Positions 37,266 through 46,880 of a stretch of DNA of 46,880 nucleotides are shown one piece after another. The notes below the pieces were generated by a model. It saw only the letters and a program-made list of their open reading frames with translations. It made no database searches and had not been told where the DNA came from. The translations under genes were made by a program, and so were the position numbers. Position 1 is the stretch's first letter, and each line of letters opens with the position of its first letter. The stretch is taken from the sequence record MN158206.1, one strand, 5' to 3'. This stretch comes from Escherichia phage BEK2.

Positions 37266-37463
37266 TTAATCTCTTTCAACCGTGAAAGTTTTGCTAAATT
37301 GCTCATTTGTCATAGTTACAAATCCATTTCTGTGCTTAACCTTCATGTTTTCACTTCCGGCATACATATACTCATATACTCTACCGACAGTAAAGTAAAT
37401 GAAGCACATTTCCTCTCTCTCACTCAGGTTTGCAAAAGACATGCCTTTATATTTGGCCTTCAT
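37266..37463 (-). CDS. hypothetical protein
   Basis: 65 aa ORF. Confidence 0.4.
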   Translation of the reverse strand: MKAKYKGMSFANLSEREEMCFIYFTVGRVYEYMYAGSENMKVKHRNGFVTMTNEQFSKTFTVERD

Positions 37464-43516: not shown

Positions 43517-44149
43517 ATGGCTAAAATTATCATTCTTAACGGACCCGCTTCTATTGGTAAGGACACTATTGGCAACGCGTTATGCTATGATTACCGATGC
43601 ATCAAAACCAGCCTTAAGCGTCCAATGTTTGAAATTGCCGAGTCAATCCTGGGGGTGGAGGCATTCAGTAAGTTCATCACGGCTTATGATGACCGAGATC
43701 AGAAAGAGATGCCTCAGAGCTTCCTTGGTGGCAAGACCTGCCGCGAGTTCATGATCTGGATTAGCGAAACGGTAGTCAAGCCTCTATTTGGCAACCAGCA
43801 ATTCGGTAAGCTGATGAGCGAACATATAAATCTGTGTGATGAAGGATTCACGTTCGTTTGCACTGATGGCGGGTTCACTGATGAAGTCATAAAGCTTGTT
43901 GAAGATGGTCACGATGTTACCGTTGTGCGTCTATTTATGGATGGCAAGACCTTCGCAGGCGATAGTCGTAATTACATCCACATTGAAGAATCTCAGTTCC
44001 ATTACTGCTCGTGGTATCAGGAGTGTGACGTGCATCTAATAAGTGGTGACATTGATGGCGGTGTCCTGGCGGTGGCTGAGGCTTGCGGTATTAGCTCATC
44101 AGTCCCAGAGGTTGATGTTTACGAGTGGGAAGATGGATTGCCCTGGTAA
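43517..44149 (+). CDS. P-loop nucleotide kinase (dNMP-kinase-like)
   Basis: Walker A 'LNGPASIGKDT' resembling T4 gp1 'GVKRSGKDT'. Confidence 0.55.
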   Translation: MAKIIILNGPASIGKDTIGNALCYDYRCIKTSLKRPMFEIAESILGVEAFSKFITAYDDRDQKEMPQSFLGGKTCREFMIWISETVVKPLFGNQQFGKLMSEHINLCDEGFTFVCTDGGFTDEVIKLVEDGHDVTVVRLFMDGKTFAGDSRNYIHIEESQFHYCSWYQECDVHLISGDIDGGVLAVAEACGISSSVPEVDVYEWEDGLPW

Positions 44150-44150
44150 A

Positions 44151-44193
44151 TAGCACTTTTTGCCTAACCCTCTTCGGAGGGTTTTGTTATAGT
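44151..44193 (+). promoter_or_regulatory. composite promoter variant with embedded terminator (TAGCACTTTTTGCCTA, hairpin, -10 TGtTATAGT)
   Basis: box 44151-44166, hairpin ccctc-ttcg-gaggg + T4 (44167-44186), -10 44188-44193, leader 'tcccATCGAAAGCAAAC'. Confidence 0.55.
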
Positions 44194-44231
44194 TATCCCA
44201 TCGAAAGCAAACAACCAAACGGAGCTACAAA

Positions 44232-44324
44232 ATGATTTCTTTACTGATGATTATCCCTGCTGTTATCGCCCTGGGTCTGATGGTTAGTGCTGGTGAGTTC
44301 TACGTCCCAGTCAACAAGAAATAG
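44232..44324 (+). CDS. hypothetical small hydrophobic peptide (30 aa)
   Basis: 'MISLLMIIPAVIALGLMVSAG...' single TM; own promoter; stop in next box. Confidence 0.3.
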   Translation: MISLLMIIPAVIALGLMVSAGEFYVPVNKK

Positions 44325-44363
44325 CACGAAATGATAAGCCGCTCCGGCGGGTTTTGTTATAGT
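44322..44363 (+). promoter_or_regulatory. degenerate composite promoter (TAGCACGAAATGATA + hairpin + -10 TGtTATAGT)
   Basis: -10 44358-44363 at 36 bp. Confidence 0.4.
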
Positions 44364-44392
44364 TAGTTCACACCAAGCGAGAGGAAAGAGAA

Positions 44393-44485
44393 GTGAAGCA
44401 ATACCCATCAAGCAATCACCATAACGGTCACATCATGCAGTTCTATCGCCACAATCTGAAGACTAATGGAGTATTTGGAAAATGA
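44393..44485 (+). CDS. hypothetical small protein (30 aa)
   Basis: GTG with GAGAGGAAAGAG RBS; ATGA overlap with next gene. Confidence 0.3.
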
Positions 44486-44721
44486 TTACAATTAACCTGT
44501 CAGATAAAGACGCAGAAATGCTAAAGAGTATTATTATGAAACCAATGTACTCCACGCTCTCATTCGAGCAGATGCGAGTAGTGAAAGAAGTTGGCACACA
44601 GATTAATAATCAGCAGTTCGACGTTAGCGACTTCGATTCATCTCGTCAATACGAGTCGCTTAGCGTCAATGCTGCGTACATTGATAAAGCAGTATGGGAA
44701 AAGGCGAGAAATAAAAAATGA
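44482..44721 (+). CDS. hypothetical protein
   Basis: 79 aa ORF. Confidence 0.5.
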
Positions 44722-44855
44722 TTTACATCCACACGTACTACACTGGTAAGTTTAATAGCGTTAAGCATGCTCGAGTTCACGATAGCTACGATAGTGCAAA
44801 GGCTCAATGGTTGGTTCTTGGTGGTGATATTAATTCATATAGAGTCGCTGAATAG
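44718..44855 (+). CDS. hypothetical small protein (45 aa)
   Basis: ATGA overlap upstream; stop TAG inside box. Confidence 0.35.
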   Translation: MIYIHTYYTGKFNSVKHARVHDSYDSAKAQWLVLGGDINSYRVAE

Positions 44856-44895
44856 CACTAATTGCTAAAACAGTATTGGGGTAATTTGTTATAGT
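44853..44895 (+). promoter_or_regulatory. composite early-type promoter (TAGCACTAATTGCTA + -10 TGtTATAGT)
   Basis: box 44853-44867, -10 44890-44895, leader 'ccccATCGAAACGAACGAGG'. Confidence 0.6.
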
Positions 44896-44925
44896 TACCC
44901 CATCGAAACGAACGAGGAAGCAGAA

Positions 44926-45105
44926 ATGAAATTCCAACAAGGCGACCCCAAGCTCCAGGCCAACCACTTCGATGGCTACGCAACATTCATCATCGCCCAG
45001 GCATGCGGAATGTGTGAAGAGCCTCAGGTTCACACAATCCACTTAACCGAAGAGCAAGCCCGAGAGCTGGCTTACGAAATTCTAGAGCAATTGAACCGAA
45101 TTTAA
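44926..45105 (+). CDS. hypothetical protein (59 aa)
   Basis: ATG 44926 downstream of promoter/leader; antisense track ORF 44830..45042 rejected. Confidence 0.45.
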   Translation: MKFQQGDPKLQANHFDGYATFIIAQACGMCEEPQVHTIHLTEEQARELAYEILEQLNRI

Positions 45106-45156
45106 CGCGCCTAAAGCGCATTCTAACGAACGATAATTTAAGTAAGGTGATTCATC

Positions 45157-45288
45157 ATGGAAGTACAAGAAAGCCCAGTAGGGTGGTGTAAGAGAATGCA
45201 GGACGAAGCTAAGACTGGTGAAGAGGCAATGGCTTACTACGAACTGGCGCAAATGTGGATGGAACGGGAGAAGAAGAGAAATGACTAA
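45157..45288 (+). CDS. hypothetical small protein (43 aa)
   Basis: AAGGTG RBS. Confidence 0.35.
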   Translation: MEVQESPVGWCKRMQDEAKTGEEAMAYYELAQMWMEREKKRND

Positions 45289-45433
45289 CACTTGTGTATT
45301 TTTTTATGACGGTGAATTTATTGATGACTTAATCTACTTCAATGAAAAGTATGGCGACACATTCGAATGCGACGGCGACAATCTCGAGGTTCTGTCAACT
45401 TTCAATAGGGGTGGAAAAAATGAACTTCACTGA
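45281..45433 (+). CDS. hypothetical small protein (50 aa)
   Basis: internal ATG of track ORF 45218; overlaps neighbours. Confidence 0.35.
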   Translation: MTNTCVFFYDGEFIDDLIYFNEKYGDTFECDGDNLEVLSTFNRGGKNELH

Positions 45434-45572
45434 ATATGTGATTGCATGTGAACGACTGGTTTTCGATATGAAGACTTTCCACTGGTTCATCATTAAGGAT
45501 CTAATTAAGCCTTATAAGCAATGCGTTACGCCAGAGGCATTTATAAAGAACTTCTATAGCACTAAAAGCTAA
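45420..45572 (+). CDS. hypothetical small protein (50 aa)
   Basis: internal ATG of track ORF 45342. Confidence 0.35.
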   Translation: MNFTEYVIACERLVFDMKTFHWFIIKDLIKPYKQCVTPEAFIKNFYSTKS

Positions 45573-45629
45573 ACGCAGTCGCCACGGATGGCATATAATT
45601 ACCATATCAAAACAAAGAGAGATTGAGAT

Positions 45630-45740
45630 ATGACAAGTTATGGTTCTTACACACTTGGTGAGCTATATGACGCTTATTACTCATGGGGTTCAGCATCAGA
45701 ATGCGATGCAGACACAAAGGCAGTAATAATTGAGGATTGA
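45630..45740 (+). CDS. hypothetical small protein (36 aa)
   Basis: RBS-like GAGAGATTGAG upstream. Confidence 0.3.
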   Translation: MTSYGSYTLGELYDAYYSWGSASECDADTKAVIIED

Positions 45741-45743
45741 GAT

Positions 45744-45983
45744 ATGTTCGGACTAAACGAGTCAATGTTCAATGCGGTAAAGCGCCAGGCTAAAAAGCTC
45801 AACGATAAGTATGAGTCATTAAGCAAACTGGAACGCAAGAATGATAAGTTTGTTGCGTGTGTAATCACTGAAGTTTGGGAGCCAGTTTCTACGGTAATCA
45901 GCAGAGATCGCTTTGTCTGGGTAGCTGGTTATTTGCGAGGCCGCGTTGGTCATGACGAGAATGGGGATAGTCTTTATGAGTGA
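45744..45983 (+). CDS. hypothetical protein
   Basis: 79 aa ORF. Confidence 0.5.
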   Translation: MFGLNESMFNAVKRQAKKLNDKYESLSKLERKNDKFVACVITEVWEPVSTVISRDRFVWVAGYLRGRVGHDENGDSLYE

Positions 45984-46040
45984 ATTAACAATCTGGTTTA
46001 TCGCGGGGCTGATTGCTTGGGGTTACTTTATGGTGGTCGC

Positions 46041-46283
46041 ATGAGAACACTTAGGCAGATCTTGAACGGTTGCAAGAAGCATCATTATGTATTTAACAAG
46101 TCTAGAGTGCCCCAGGGTCGTATTGGTTGTGATGAGTACTTTTGCATAAAATGCTTGCACATAATTCACATAAACCATAGGCCATTAAGCTTAAGAAAGC
46201 CTAAGATAGAATCCCTATACGGATACCAGCCGAAAGATAGTGGACATATGTGGGTGATTGGAAAACCGCCAGTTAAACGGTAA
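46041..46283 (+). CDS. hypothetical Cys-containing protein
   Basis: ATG 46041; 'C..C...C' pattern. Confidence 0.45.
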   Translation: MRTLRQILNGCKKHHYVFNKSRVPQGRIGCDEYFCIKCLHIIHINHRPLSLRKPKIESLYGYQPKDSGHMWVIGKPPVKR

Positions 46284-46297
46284 TTGTTAAAAAGAGC

Positions 46298-46326
46298 TTG
46301 CATCACTGACTGGAATTATCTAACAT
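46298..46326 (+). promoter_or_regulatory. sigma70-like promoter upstream of tRNA
   Basis: -35 TTGCAT, 17-bp spacer, -10 TAACAT. Confidence 0.4.
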
Positions 46327-46492
46327 TAACCACGTAGACAAACGAGCCATCCAAGATGGAACGGCGCACGGAGCGCAACTACTAAGTCCGTTGCTCATTA
46401 TGTAGCTCATGCGGCATTAAGACCTAGCGCAAATAGGCATATTAACCGGCTGTATCAGGCAGCCCCGGAGCCGTAACCGGGACTCATTCAAA

Positions 46493-46569
46493 GCTCGAGT
46501 GGCGAAAGTGGATATCGCAAGAGACTTCTAATCTCTAGATTGCTGGTTCGAATCCAGCCTCGGGCGCCA
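46493..46569 (+). tRNA. tRNA-Arg (anticodon UCU)
   Basis: hand-folded cloverleaf: acceptor GCTCGAG/CTCGGGC (one G-U), D-stem GCGA/TCGC with GG in loop, anticodon stem AGAGA/TCTCT, loop CT-TCT-AA, T-arm GCTGG-TTCGAAT-CCAGC, discriminator G, encoded CCA. Confidence 0.8.
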
Positions 46570-46584
46570 ATAAAGGAGTTCATT

Positions 46585-46767
46585 ATGTGGGATGTGAAGT
46601 TGTCCATTCGCTTAATGGGCCGCTCGTGCAAGAATTGCACTCAAGATTATATCGCGTCAGTTGCCGCAATCAGCGCTGAGGATGCGGTAGCGAAAGTAAA
46701 AGAGATGTCAGGCGCTGACCCTGATACTCACAAATTCCTGGTTGCTTACGTTCGTGAGCGAAAGTAA
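46585..46767 (+). CDS. hypothetical protein
   Basis: 60 aa from ATG 46585 with AAGGAG RBS. Confidence 0.45.
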   Translation: MWDVKLSIRLMGRSCKNCTQDYIASVAAISAEDAVAKVKEMSGADPDTHKFLVAYVRERK

Positions 46768-46811
46768 AAAGTGTTATACCCTCGTTAAGTTTCGTTTCTC
46801 TCGTTGTTTTT

Positions 46812-46837
46812 AGCCCTCGCTTGAGGGCTTTTTTTCG
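46812..46837 (+). terminator. intrinsic terminator
   Basis: agccctc-gcttg-agggct + T7. Confidence 0.7.
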
Positions 46838-46846
46838 CCTGCAATA

Positions 46847-46855
46847 TGGTATAAT
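46847..46855 (+). promoter_or_regulatory. extended -10 promoter (TGgTATAAT) for a gene starting beyond window end
   Basis: followed by RBS AAGGAGG at 46871-46877, no start codon inside window. Confidence 0.45.
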
Positions 46856-46880
46856 CTGACCTCAACAAAGGAGGATTAAC

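Follow-up and report, generated by a model that had tools for sequence, protein, structure and literature searches.

We analyzed the 46,880-nt sequence of Escherichia phage BEK2 (MN158206.1; hereafter the window, a whole genome sequence in which the terminase genes begin at position 1) and found that positions 44150 to 46283 very probably form a variable accessory-gene block of an Rtp-like Drexlerviridae phage, with 12 mini-genes arranged in four units that are each headed by an intergenic cassette. The block lies between a deoxynucleoside monophosphate (dNMP)-kinase-like gene and the tRNA-Arg/terminase module, and its cassettes delimit the units A, B-C-D, E-F-G-H and I-J-K-L, designated here by the open reading frames (ORFs) that they contain. 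A first-pass annotation of this DNA had described about 12 very small ORFs, several of them shorter than 60 amino acids (aa), chained by ATGA and TAATG overlaps and punctuated by box promoters. All of the ORFs that it listed were present and ended where it had placed their ends, and three further ORFs in the same interval (E, I and J) complete a set of 12 plus-strand ORFs (A to L; Table 1) of 22 to 80 aa, nine of which fall below 60 aa. The chaining stood in part: ATGA overlaps of 4 nt join B to C, C to D and K to L, whereas TAATG junctions were absent, and the remaining contacts are 8-nt overlaps (F/G and J/K), a 14-nt overlap (G/H) and a 3-nt gap (I/J). Within units, most genes would be translationally coupled through such start/stop overlaps of 4 to 14 nt. 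The GenBank record of the near-identical phage BEK3 annotates seven coding sequences (CDSs) in the interval and leaves out A, B, I, K and L.

Evidence that the small ORFs are genes

Tiling of the interval by ORFs of at least 20 aa was not above chance (0.80 on the plus strand versus 0.65 ± 0.07 in shuffles and 0.75 on the minus strand) and was dropped as evidence because it was no better than in shuffled sequence or on the opposite strand. Coupled ATG/stop junctions numbered 7 (six real gene junctions and an incidental one at 45952), compared with 1.2 ± 1.2 in shuffles, of which 1 in 500 reached 7 (p≈0.002), and with 2 on the minus strand. A Shine-Dalgarno core of at least 4 nt preceded 7 of the 12 starts versus 13% of all ATG and GTG codons in the genome, and codon-usage log-odds ranked the proposed frame best for all 13 of the 13 ORFs tested. 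When the homologous region was compared across 21 relatives in a presence matrix, ORFs C, D, E, F, H, J and K were present in 17 to 21 of them. B and L (the latter at least as its N-terminus) were each detected in 7 relatives and G in 5, while I had a counterpart in a single relative and A had none. Homologs were found for 11 of the 12 ORFs; in the 10 for which these were divergent enough, pooled ratios of nonsynonymous to synonymous polymorphism (pN/pS), obtained from non-independent pairwise comparisons among up to 21 related phages, ranged from 0.11 to 0.39, with an excess of third-position changes and preserved length. PHROG families were assigned to B, C, D, E, F, H and J, and a search of the ORFs other than B against NCBIfam and Pfam returned DUF7180, for ORF C, as its sole match.

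The small ORFs could in principle have arisen by chance within a spacer that is non-coding or regulatory: plus-strand tiling does not exceed that of the shuffles and is nearly matched by the opposite strand, ORF A has no homolog, and GenBank skips five of the ORFs. Weighed against the selection signature in 10 ORFs, the length-preserving homologs of ORF I (near-identical in one case and approximately 55-60% identical in others), the PHROG or Pfam families of seven ORFs, the excess of coupled junctions and the codon usage, this explanation is extremely improbable for the array and survives for ORF A only. As judged from sequence, the ORFs are real small genes with phage-like codon usage and ribosome-binding sites (RBSs) that are under purifying selection, A excepted, which is unproven.

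ORF A had been singled out in the first-pass annotation as a 30-aa single-transmembrane peptide. The ORF is present, strongly hydrophobic (Kyte-Doolittle mean of 2.49 over 19 residues) and predicted to carry a single transmembrane segment, but it is an ORFan and the least supported member of the array: it gave no tblastn match in 50,697 phage records, no blastn match in E. coli genomes and, searched as a degenerate peptide pattern, no match in IMG/VR or the JGI metagenomes. In its favor are a good RBS, a codon log-odds of 0.53 bits per codon and the fact that it exactly fills the space between two cassettes. The chance that A is non-coding is substantial, though we regard it as the smaller one.

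The intergenic cassette

Exact copies of the box (TTGTTATAGTTA) are found at 44184, 44354 and 44886, and a copy with one mismatch at 37307; by chance, 0.31 matches would be expected. The box belongs to a larger cassette consisting of an 18-nt repeat (ATAGCACnnnTTGnTAAA), a 20-nt spacer, a -10 hexamer and a conserved 5' untranslated region (5'UTR) with RBS. The repeat has 26 matches in the genome at up to 3 mismatches versus 6.25 expected, 13 of them perfect, and four copies lie in this region; about 20 good copies, on both strands, always point toward the downstream gene and sit ahead of genes of all functional classes, including late ones at 504, 2649 and 10502. A TAnnnT hexamer stands exactly 20 nt past the repeat in 14 of 20 copies versus a background of 1.6%, and most of the other copies have TAnnnT or a near match at that position or within 1-2 nt of it. 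From the start of the repeat to the start codon, the distances are 82, 72, 74 and 74 nt for A, B, E and I, respectively. A conserved 5'UTR block, yyCATCGAAACGAAA, follows the hexamer in the genome-wide cassettes. The spacer usually forms a hairpin. In class I this consists of a GC stem with a U-run behind it; the class I hairpin is 91% paired and shows compensatory changes at 2 of its pairs. Cassette 1 is a hybrid whose upstream half is class I and whose downstream half is class II, and its GC hairpin with U-run (44166-44183) has a predicted stability of -11.8 kcal/mol; in cassette 3 the hairpin GGGGTAA/TTACCCC encloses the box (-14.7 kcal/mol), and the TAG stop of ORF D lies inside the repeat.

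Among 40 copies of the box in relatives, a set anchored on TATAGTT, this heptamer was constant (a constancy seen independently in the class alignments), TG was present in 36-37, and the base between the two varied (T26/A6/C5/G3). A near-invariant TG, a constant TATAGTT and a free 'n' constitute the pattern of an extended -10 element (TGnTATAAT), and the promoter call of the first-pass annotation can be upheld in this form, with the boxes read as putative TG-extended -10 elements (TGnTATAGT; motif TGTTATAGT) in which the variable base is the 'n'. The same element recurs at the same slots in relatives, and TG-extended -10 elements accompany only five cassette copies in the genome, four of which are in this block. 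Host sigma-70 RNA polymerase would initiate at these elements without needing a -35. A canonical -35 (TTGACA-like, 16-18 nt upstream of the -10) was not found, the nearest counterpart being TTGnTA at 22 nt from the -10; a scan with the canonical sigma-70 consensus did not call the boxes, and since its hit count was below the shuffle mean the scan was uninformative.

A 21-nt repeat (aaATAGCACnnnTTGnTAAAA) with 18 intergenic copies located ~76 nt upstream of start codons has been described in phage TLS, and repeats of this type occur also in T1, Rtp and Rogue1, according to the available part of that report (PMC11447400). The repeat of the window, with about 20 copies, shares its consensus, intergenic position, orientation and distance to the start codon (~72-82 nt). 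It differs in that a -10-like hexamer is shown to follow it at a constant 20 nt, with the TG extension found mainly in copies of the accessory block, and in that its spacer usually forms a hairpin or terminator, features that the same part of the report does not mention for TLS (PMC11447400).

Rather than promoters, the boxes and repeats might be terminators, 'stoperator'-type operators, or elements of RNA processing or stability. Such roles would suit the terminator-like GC hairpin and U-run of the class I spacer, with its compensatory changes, the palindrome TAGCA-N5-TGCTA that the repeat holds near -42, the lack of a canonical -35 and the stoperator or enhancer roles proposed by the authors of the TLS report. 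We nevertheless consider a purely non-promoter function unlikely in view of the fixed 20-nt position of TAnnnT, the constancy of TG and TATAGT around a varying 'n', and the orientation of all copies toward a downstream gene whose start is always 72-82 nt away; the palindrome, in turn, is degraded in two copies of the window. As an RNA hairpin the palindrome was examined and rejected, for it showed no covariation, only conserved or broken pairs. Promoter and terminator roles are not mutually exclusive, and a composite terminator-promoter is the likeliest reading of the cassette.

Table 1. Features of the accessory-gene block of phage BEK2 and its surroundings (positions in the window).
Feature	Position	Strand	Description
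Cassette 1	44150..44231	+	repeat 44150-44167; TG 44185-44186; TATAGT 44188-44193; 5'UTR and RBS
ORF A	44232..44324	+	30-aa hydrophobic peptide; no GenBank annotation; no homolog
Cassette 2 (class I)	44321..44392	+	degenerate repeat 44321-44338; GC hairpin; box 44354-44365 (TATAGT 44358-44363); 5'UTR and RBS
ORF B	44393..44485	+	30-aa Stp homolog, GTG start; PF08133, phrog_6763; no GenBank annotation
ORF C	44482..44721	+	79 aa; DUF7180 / phrog_16063; ATGA-coupled to B; pN/pS 0.33
ORF D	44718..44855	+	45 aa; phrog_3955 (Rtp9 / T1 gp04 family); ATGA-coupled to C
Cassette 3 (class II)	44852..44925	+	perfect repeat 44852-44869; box 44886-44897 (TATAGT 44890-44895); 5'UTR CCCCATCGAAACGAA and RBS
ORF E	44926..45105	+	59 aa; phrog_7411; CxxC motif; highly conserved, pN/pS 0.12
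ORF F	45157..45288	+	43 aa; phrog_1312
ORF G	45281..45433	+	50 aa; optional module, 5/21 relatives; pN/pS 0.20; 8-nt overlap with F
ORF H	45420..45572	+	50 aa; phrog_22596; pN/pS 0.11; 14-nt overlap with G
Cassette 4	45556..45629	+	repeat 45556-45573 over ORF H stop; TATAAT 45594-45599, no preceding TG; 5'UTR and RBS
ORF I	45630..45740	+	36 aa; no GenBank annotation; homologs in phiA2-1 and Kagunavirus phages
ORF J	45744..45983	+	79 aa; phrog_303 (Rtp15 / T1 gp59 family); helical
ORF K	45976..46044	+	22-aa hydrophobic micropeptide MSELTIWFIAGLIAWGYFMVVA; no GenBank annotation; pN/pS 0.34
ORF L	46041..46283	+	80 aa; no GenBank annotation; rare Cys/His family
dNMP-kinase-like gene	43517..44149		210 aa, P-loop; left neighbor of the array
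tRNA-Arg(UCU)	46493..46569	+	downstream of array
ORF M	46585..46767	+	60 aa; downstream of tRNA-Arg, before terminator
Strong intrinsic terminator	46812..46829	+	-12.5 kcal/mol; ends rightward unit ahead of terminase genes
Genome-wide cassettes	504, 2649, 10502, 21758(-), 22504(-), 23296(-), 24945, 33441, 37543(-), 39973(-), 41344(-), 41715(-), 43319 and others		minus-strand copies marked (-)

The Stp homolog

The expectation of the first-pass annotation that such an array would hold anti-defence factors is borne out for at least one gene, since ORF B belongs, by homology, to the Stp family; 10 of the 12 products are without an assignable function. ORF B matched Pfam PF08133 (Nuclease_act, 'Anticodon nuclease activator family') with 48.1 bits (cutoff, 25; E = 8.5e-13) and phrog_6763 ('activator of host PrrC lysyl-tRNA endonuclease') with E = 1.9e-13, is 76% identical to the T4-type Stp of RB10 and has a constant length of 30 aa in 6 relatives, with a pN/pS of 0.22. 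Going by these matches, it is a Stp-family peptide. By tblastn, the family extends over 623 phage records, ~600 of them T4-like (~75% identity) and ~17 of them Drexlerviridae (at least 80%). A Stp homolog in phage Rtp was reportedly noted as early as 2006 by Wietzorrek et al., and rtp6 of that phage (NC_007603) is annotated as Stp-like.

The T4 Stp ('suppressor of three-prime phosphatase') is a 26-aa delayed-early peptide that blocks type Ic restriction-modification (R-M) enzymes (EcoprrI, EcoR124I), not those of type Ia, and thereby unmasks the tRNA-Lys nuclease PrrC; its residues 4-14 are critical for both activities, and it is the only experimentally characterised anti-restriction peptide of its size class (PMC3014915). 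Its function is also described in PMC12707154. In ORF B, 8 of the 11 residues of this critical, N-proximal segment (FHNEHVMQFYR) are identical, and T4 stp, too, lies in a cluster of tiny ORFs (the ndd-stp-ac region). Differences from T4 Stp are the length of 30 aa with a 5-residue N-terminal extension, the GTG start, and the carrier, a siphovirus whose DNA is unmodified and which has neither an Rtp4-type phosphatase nor an annotated RNA ligase. Like T4 Stp, ORF B would bind host type Ic restriction enzymes of the EcoprrI / EcoR124I type and block DNA cleavage; on prr+ hosts, it would instead unleash the PrrC tRNA-Lys nuclease.

The window lacks the HAD-type end-healing phosphatase of polynucleotide kinase/phosphatase (PNKP) represented by Rtp4, and no RNA ligase is annotated in it, although the absence of a ligase was not searched for exhaustively; the phage would therefore probably be unable to repair PrrC damage, and PrrC activation would probably not be countered. 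Kaufmann's group has pointed out that Rtp encodes Stp without RNA repair and that such a phage could be restricted by PrrC. Rtp4 itself (Rtp 1444-1983), annotated as 'polynucleotide kinase', matched the HAD-type phosphatase domain of PNKP (PF25109) only, and in Rtp, ZL19 and JulesPiccard its gene is the second one ahead of the Stp homolog. A linkage of the Rtp4-type kinase/phosphatase to Stp was considered and rejected, as the former is absent from the window and showed no consistent co-occurrence with B in relatives.

Whether ORF B acts against restriction in this phage can be questioned, since it could be a hitch-hiking or decaying module or could have a different target. It was present in only 7 of the 21 sampled relatives and in ~17 Drexlerviridae records, it starts with GTG and carries the N-terminal extension, and the BASEL study, in the part available, reports most Drexlerviridae as R-M sensitive, with variable restriction phenotypes that have no genomic correlate. 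The R-M systems named in that part, however, include EcoKI (type Ia) and EcoRI (type II) with no mention of type Ic, and the low pN/pS, the constant 30 aa, the conserved critical segment, the good RBS and the position as first gene after a promoter cassette speak for a maintained function. We thus regard the loss or replacement of the anti-restriction role as improbable and retain ORF B as a candidate anti-restriction peptide of the Stp type.

Modular build of the block

The relatives share a conserved scaffold, in which optional modules (in parentheses) occupy fixed slots of the comparative map: W, X or an alternative, cassette I, (B), C, D, cassette II, E, F, (G), H, cassette, (I), J, K, (L), tRNA, M and TerS. 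The interval from X to B/C contains one cassette in relatives and two in the window, with ORF A between them, and A is bracketed by a perfect 17-nt direct repeat (GGGTTTTGTTATAGTTA, 44179-44195 and 44349-44365). ORF I is similarly bracketed by a 12-nt duplicated translation-initiation region (GATTGAGATATG, 45621-45632 and 45735-45746), and where a relative lacks I, J immediately follows this same cassette. The array would have been remodelled by recombination at conserved cassettes and translation-initiation regions, which would explain ORF A, ORF I and the optional B, G and L modules. The early-left region of Rtp (rtp6-rtp15; NC_007603) is syntenic with this scaffold, in the order cassette, Stp (rtp6), C, D, cassette, E, F, H, J, K, whereas the window has extra or alternative modules (A, G, I and L), a P-loop kinase gene in the place of rtp5 and no rtp4 PNKP-phosphatase.

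In T4-type phages, PeSL 'mobile regulatory cassettes' have been proposed to shuffle small ORFs in hyperplastic regions (PMC4122927, PMC2839356). The cassettes of the window resemble them as composite terminator/promoter motifs repeated between small variable ORFs, with indels or ORFans bracketed by two copies, as are A (17-nt repeats) and I (12-nt repeats) here. They differ from PeSLs in their unrelated sequences, in belonging to another phage family and in occurring also in conserved late regions, and recombination at them is suggested by comparative maps only.

Other ORFs of the array

ORF K is 21-22 aa long in nearly all sampled relatives (two versions are truncated), occurs in 104 phage records and is always coupled to the next gene (by ATGA or TAG-ATG), whatever gene lies upstream. 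ORF L represents a rare family that yielded 2 matches in a set of 5.8 billion proteins and is otherwise known from a few phages; C11, H14, H15, C35 and C38 are invariant, on account of which L is putatively zinc-binding, and its AlphaFold2 (AF2) model (pLDDT 55) was unusable. ORF I is 97% identical in phiA2-1 and ~55-60% identical in ~25 other records, several of them of Kagunavirus or K1-specific phages; homologs of I were found in 29 records. The AF2 model of ORF J (pLDDT 83) had no PDB match with E <0.6 and retrieved only J's own family from BFVD, and a hidden Markov model (HMM) search of 1.8 billion representatives yielded only 21 clusters and no functional lead. The 79-aa J family also matches seven tandem stretches of a 504-aa metagenomic protein, which may be a repeat protein or an assembly artefact. 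ORF E has 88 homolog clusters, all of unnamed phage proteins.

Relatives and flanking regions

Compared end to end, the window and Escherichia phage BEK3 (MN158207.1; Drexlerviridae, Braunvirinae) are 99.977% identical. The differences, 7 mismatches and 2 gaps (4 nt), all fall within 3252-43410, and the two are identical from 43411 onward; owing to the gaps, coordinates of the BEK3 record in the studied region equal those of the window plus 4. In megablast, positions 44000-46880 matched BEK3 at 100% and 96 other records, nearly all Rtp-like coliphages, at 80-95%. Just upstream of cassette I in relatives, an 86-aa protein of the rtp5 family is labelled 'terminase large subunit' in several records (EC3a 2111-2371 and two others), apparently an annotation error passed on from record to record.

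Between ORF L and the tRNA gene, 209 nt (46284-46492) contain no convincing ORF but a minus-strand terminator-like hairpin (46365-46346); in the equivalent gap of BEK6, a 37-aa minus-strand CDS is annotated. The tRNA-Arg(UCU), the sole Rfam match, reads AGA, has an encoded CCA end, lies 15 nt upstream of ORF M and is kept in most relatives; it could serve codon supply or the evasion of tRNA-targeting defences (cf. PMC10264068). Directly past the 46812 terminator and upstream of terS, a TG-extended -10 (TGGTATAAT) at 46840-46858 is a plausible candidate promoter of the packaging and structural operon. In the terminase module, an HNH homing-endonuclease gene (576-1088) lies between the genes for the small and large terminase subunits; it is present in some relatives (Rtp rtp20, 2725-N35) and absent in others.

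Timing of expression and weight of the evidence

From -35-independent initiation at extended -10 elements we infer that the block would be expressed from the start of infection. The boxes alone do not mark an early class, because the same cassette precedes late genes (504, 2649 and 10502), and the genes, though real, could instead form a constitutive, middle or late block of miscellaneous accessory functions (superinfection exclusion, regulation or morphogenetic helpers) with no part in early takeover or anti-defence. The block is directly upstream of, and co-oriented with, the terminase and structural genes, 10 of its 12 products gave no functional lead, and no transcriptome of a T1-like phage was found in the literature. 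Yet TG-extended -10 elements would need no activator and are concentrated in this region (4 of 5 genome copies), Stp is delayed-early in T4 and must act before restriction, and a strong terminator (46812) stands between the block and the terminase operon. On balance, a non-early block is conceivable but rather doubtful, and early expression is our tentative reading.

Several points nevertheless weigh against our account of the block as a whole. The early timing has to be reconciled with cassettes that also precede structural genes; the repeat is not a canonical -35, its TTGnTA being 22 and not 17 nt from the -10, and may need an unknown factor; and for the TLS counterpart its authors considered a stoperator, an enhancer or an UP-element (PMC11447400). 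As to the genes, the pN/pS comparisons are not independent, ORF A, without a homolog, owes its candidate status to context, RBS and codon usage, ORF B starts with GTG where relatives have ATG, and the lack of an RNA ligase is that of an annotation.

A more far-reaching interpretation, which we offer tentatively and as a single package, is that the cassettes are the Drexlerviridae counterpart of the T4 PeSLs, mobile and serving as recombination targets, and that they capture the ORFan A as well as genes held in common with phages of unrelated families (T4-like ones for Stp, Kagunavirus-like ones for I). The TG-extended subclass would then be an activator-independent immediate-early regulon, the TG-less late copies would depend on an unknown factor binding the TAGCA-N5-TGCTA palindrome near -42, and the 22-aa K would be an overlooked membrane-acting host-takeover factor within the immediate-early regulon.

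Significance

The small-ORF array of T1/Rtp-like phages, its Stp homolog and the 18-21-nt repeat are already in the literature. What is added here is five gene calls missing from the BEK3 record, the breadth of K conservation, the constant arrangement in which a 20-nt spacer separates the repeat from a -10 hexamer, with most TG-extended copies lying in the accessory block, and two insertion events bracketed by repeats of regulatory sequence. The five missing genes (the Stp homolog, a 22-aa peptide found in 104 records, a Cys/His protein, a 36-aa peptide shared with Kagunavirus phages and an ORFan) imply that much of the coliphage accessory proteome lies below gene-caller thresholds, and the fixed cassette geometry provides a concrete promoter model for a repeat that is still listed without a function. 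For the Drexlerviridae, the presence of Stp may explain part of the variation in restriction phenotypes, for type Ic systems only, and the ~17 T1-like records with Stp, in a setting where the window shows no tRNA-repair enzymes, would offer a natural test of PrrC as an effective second line of defence.

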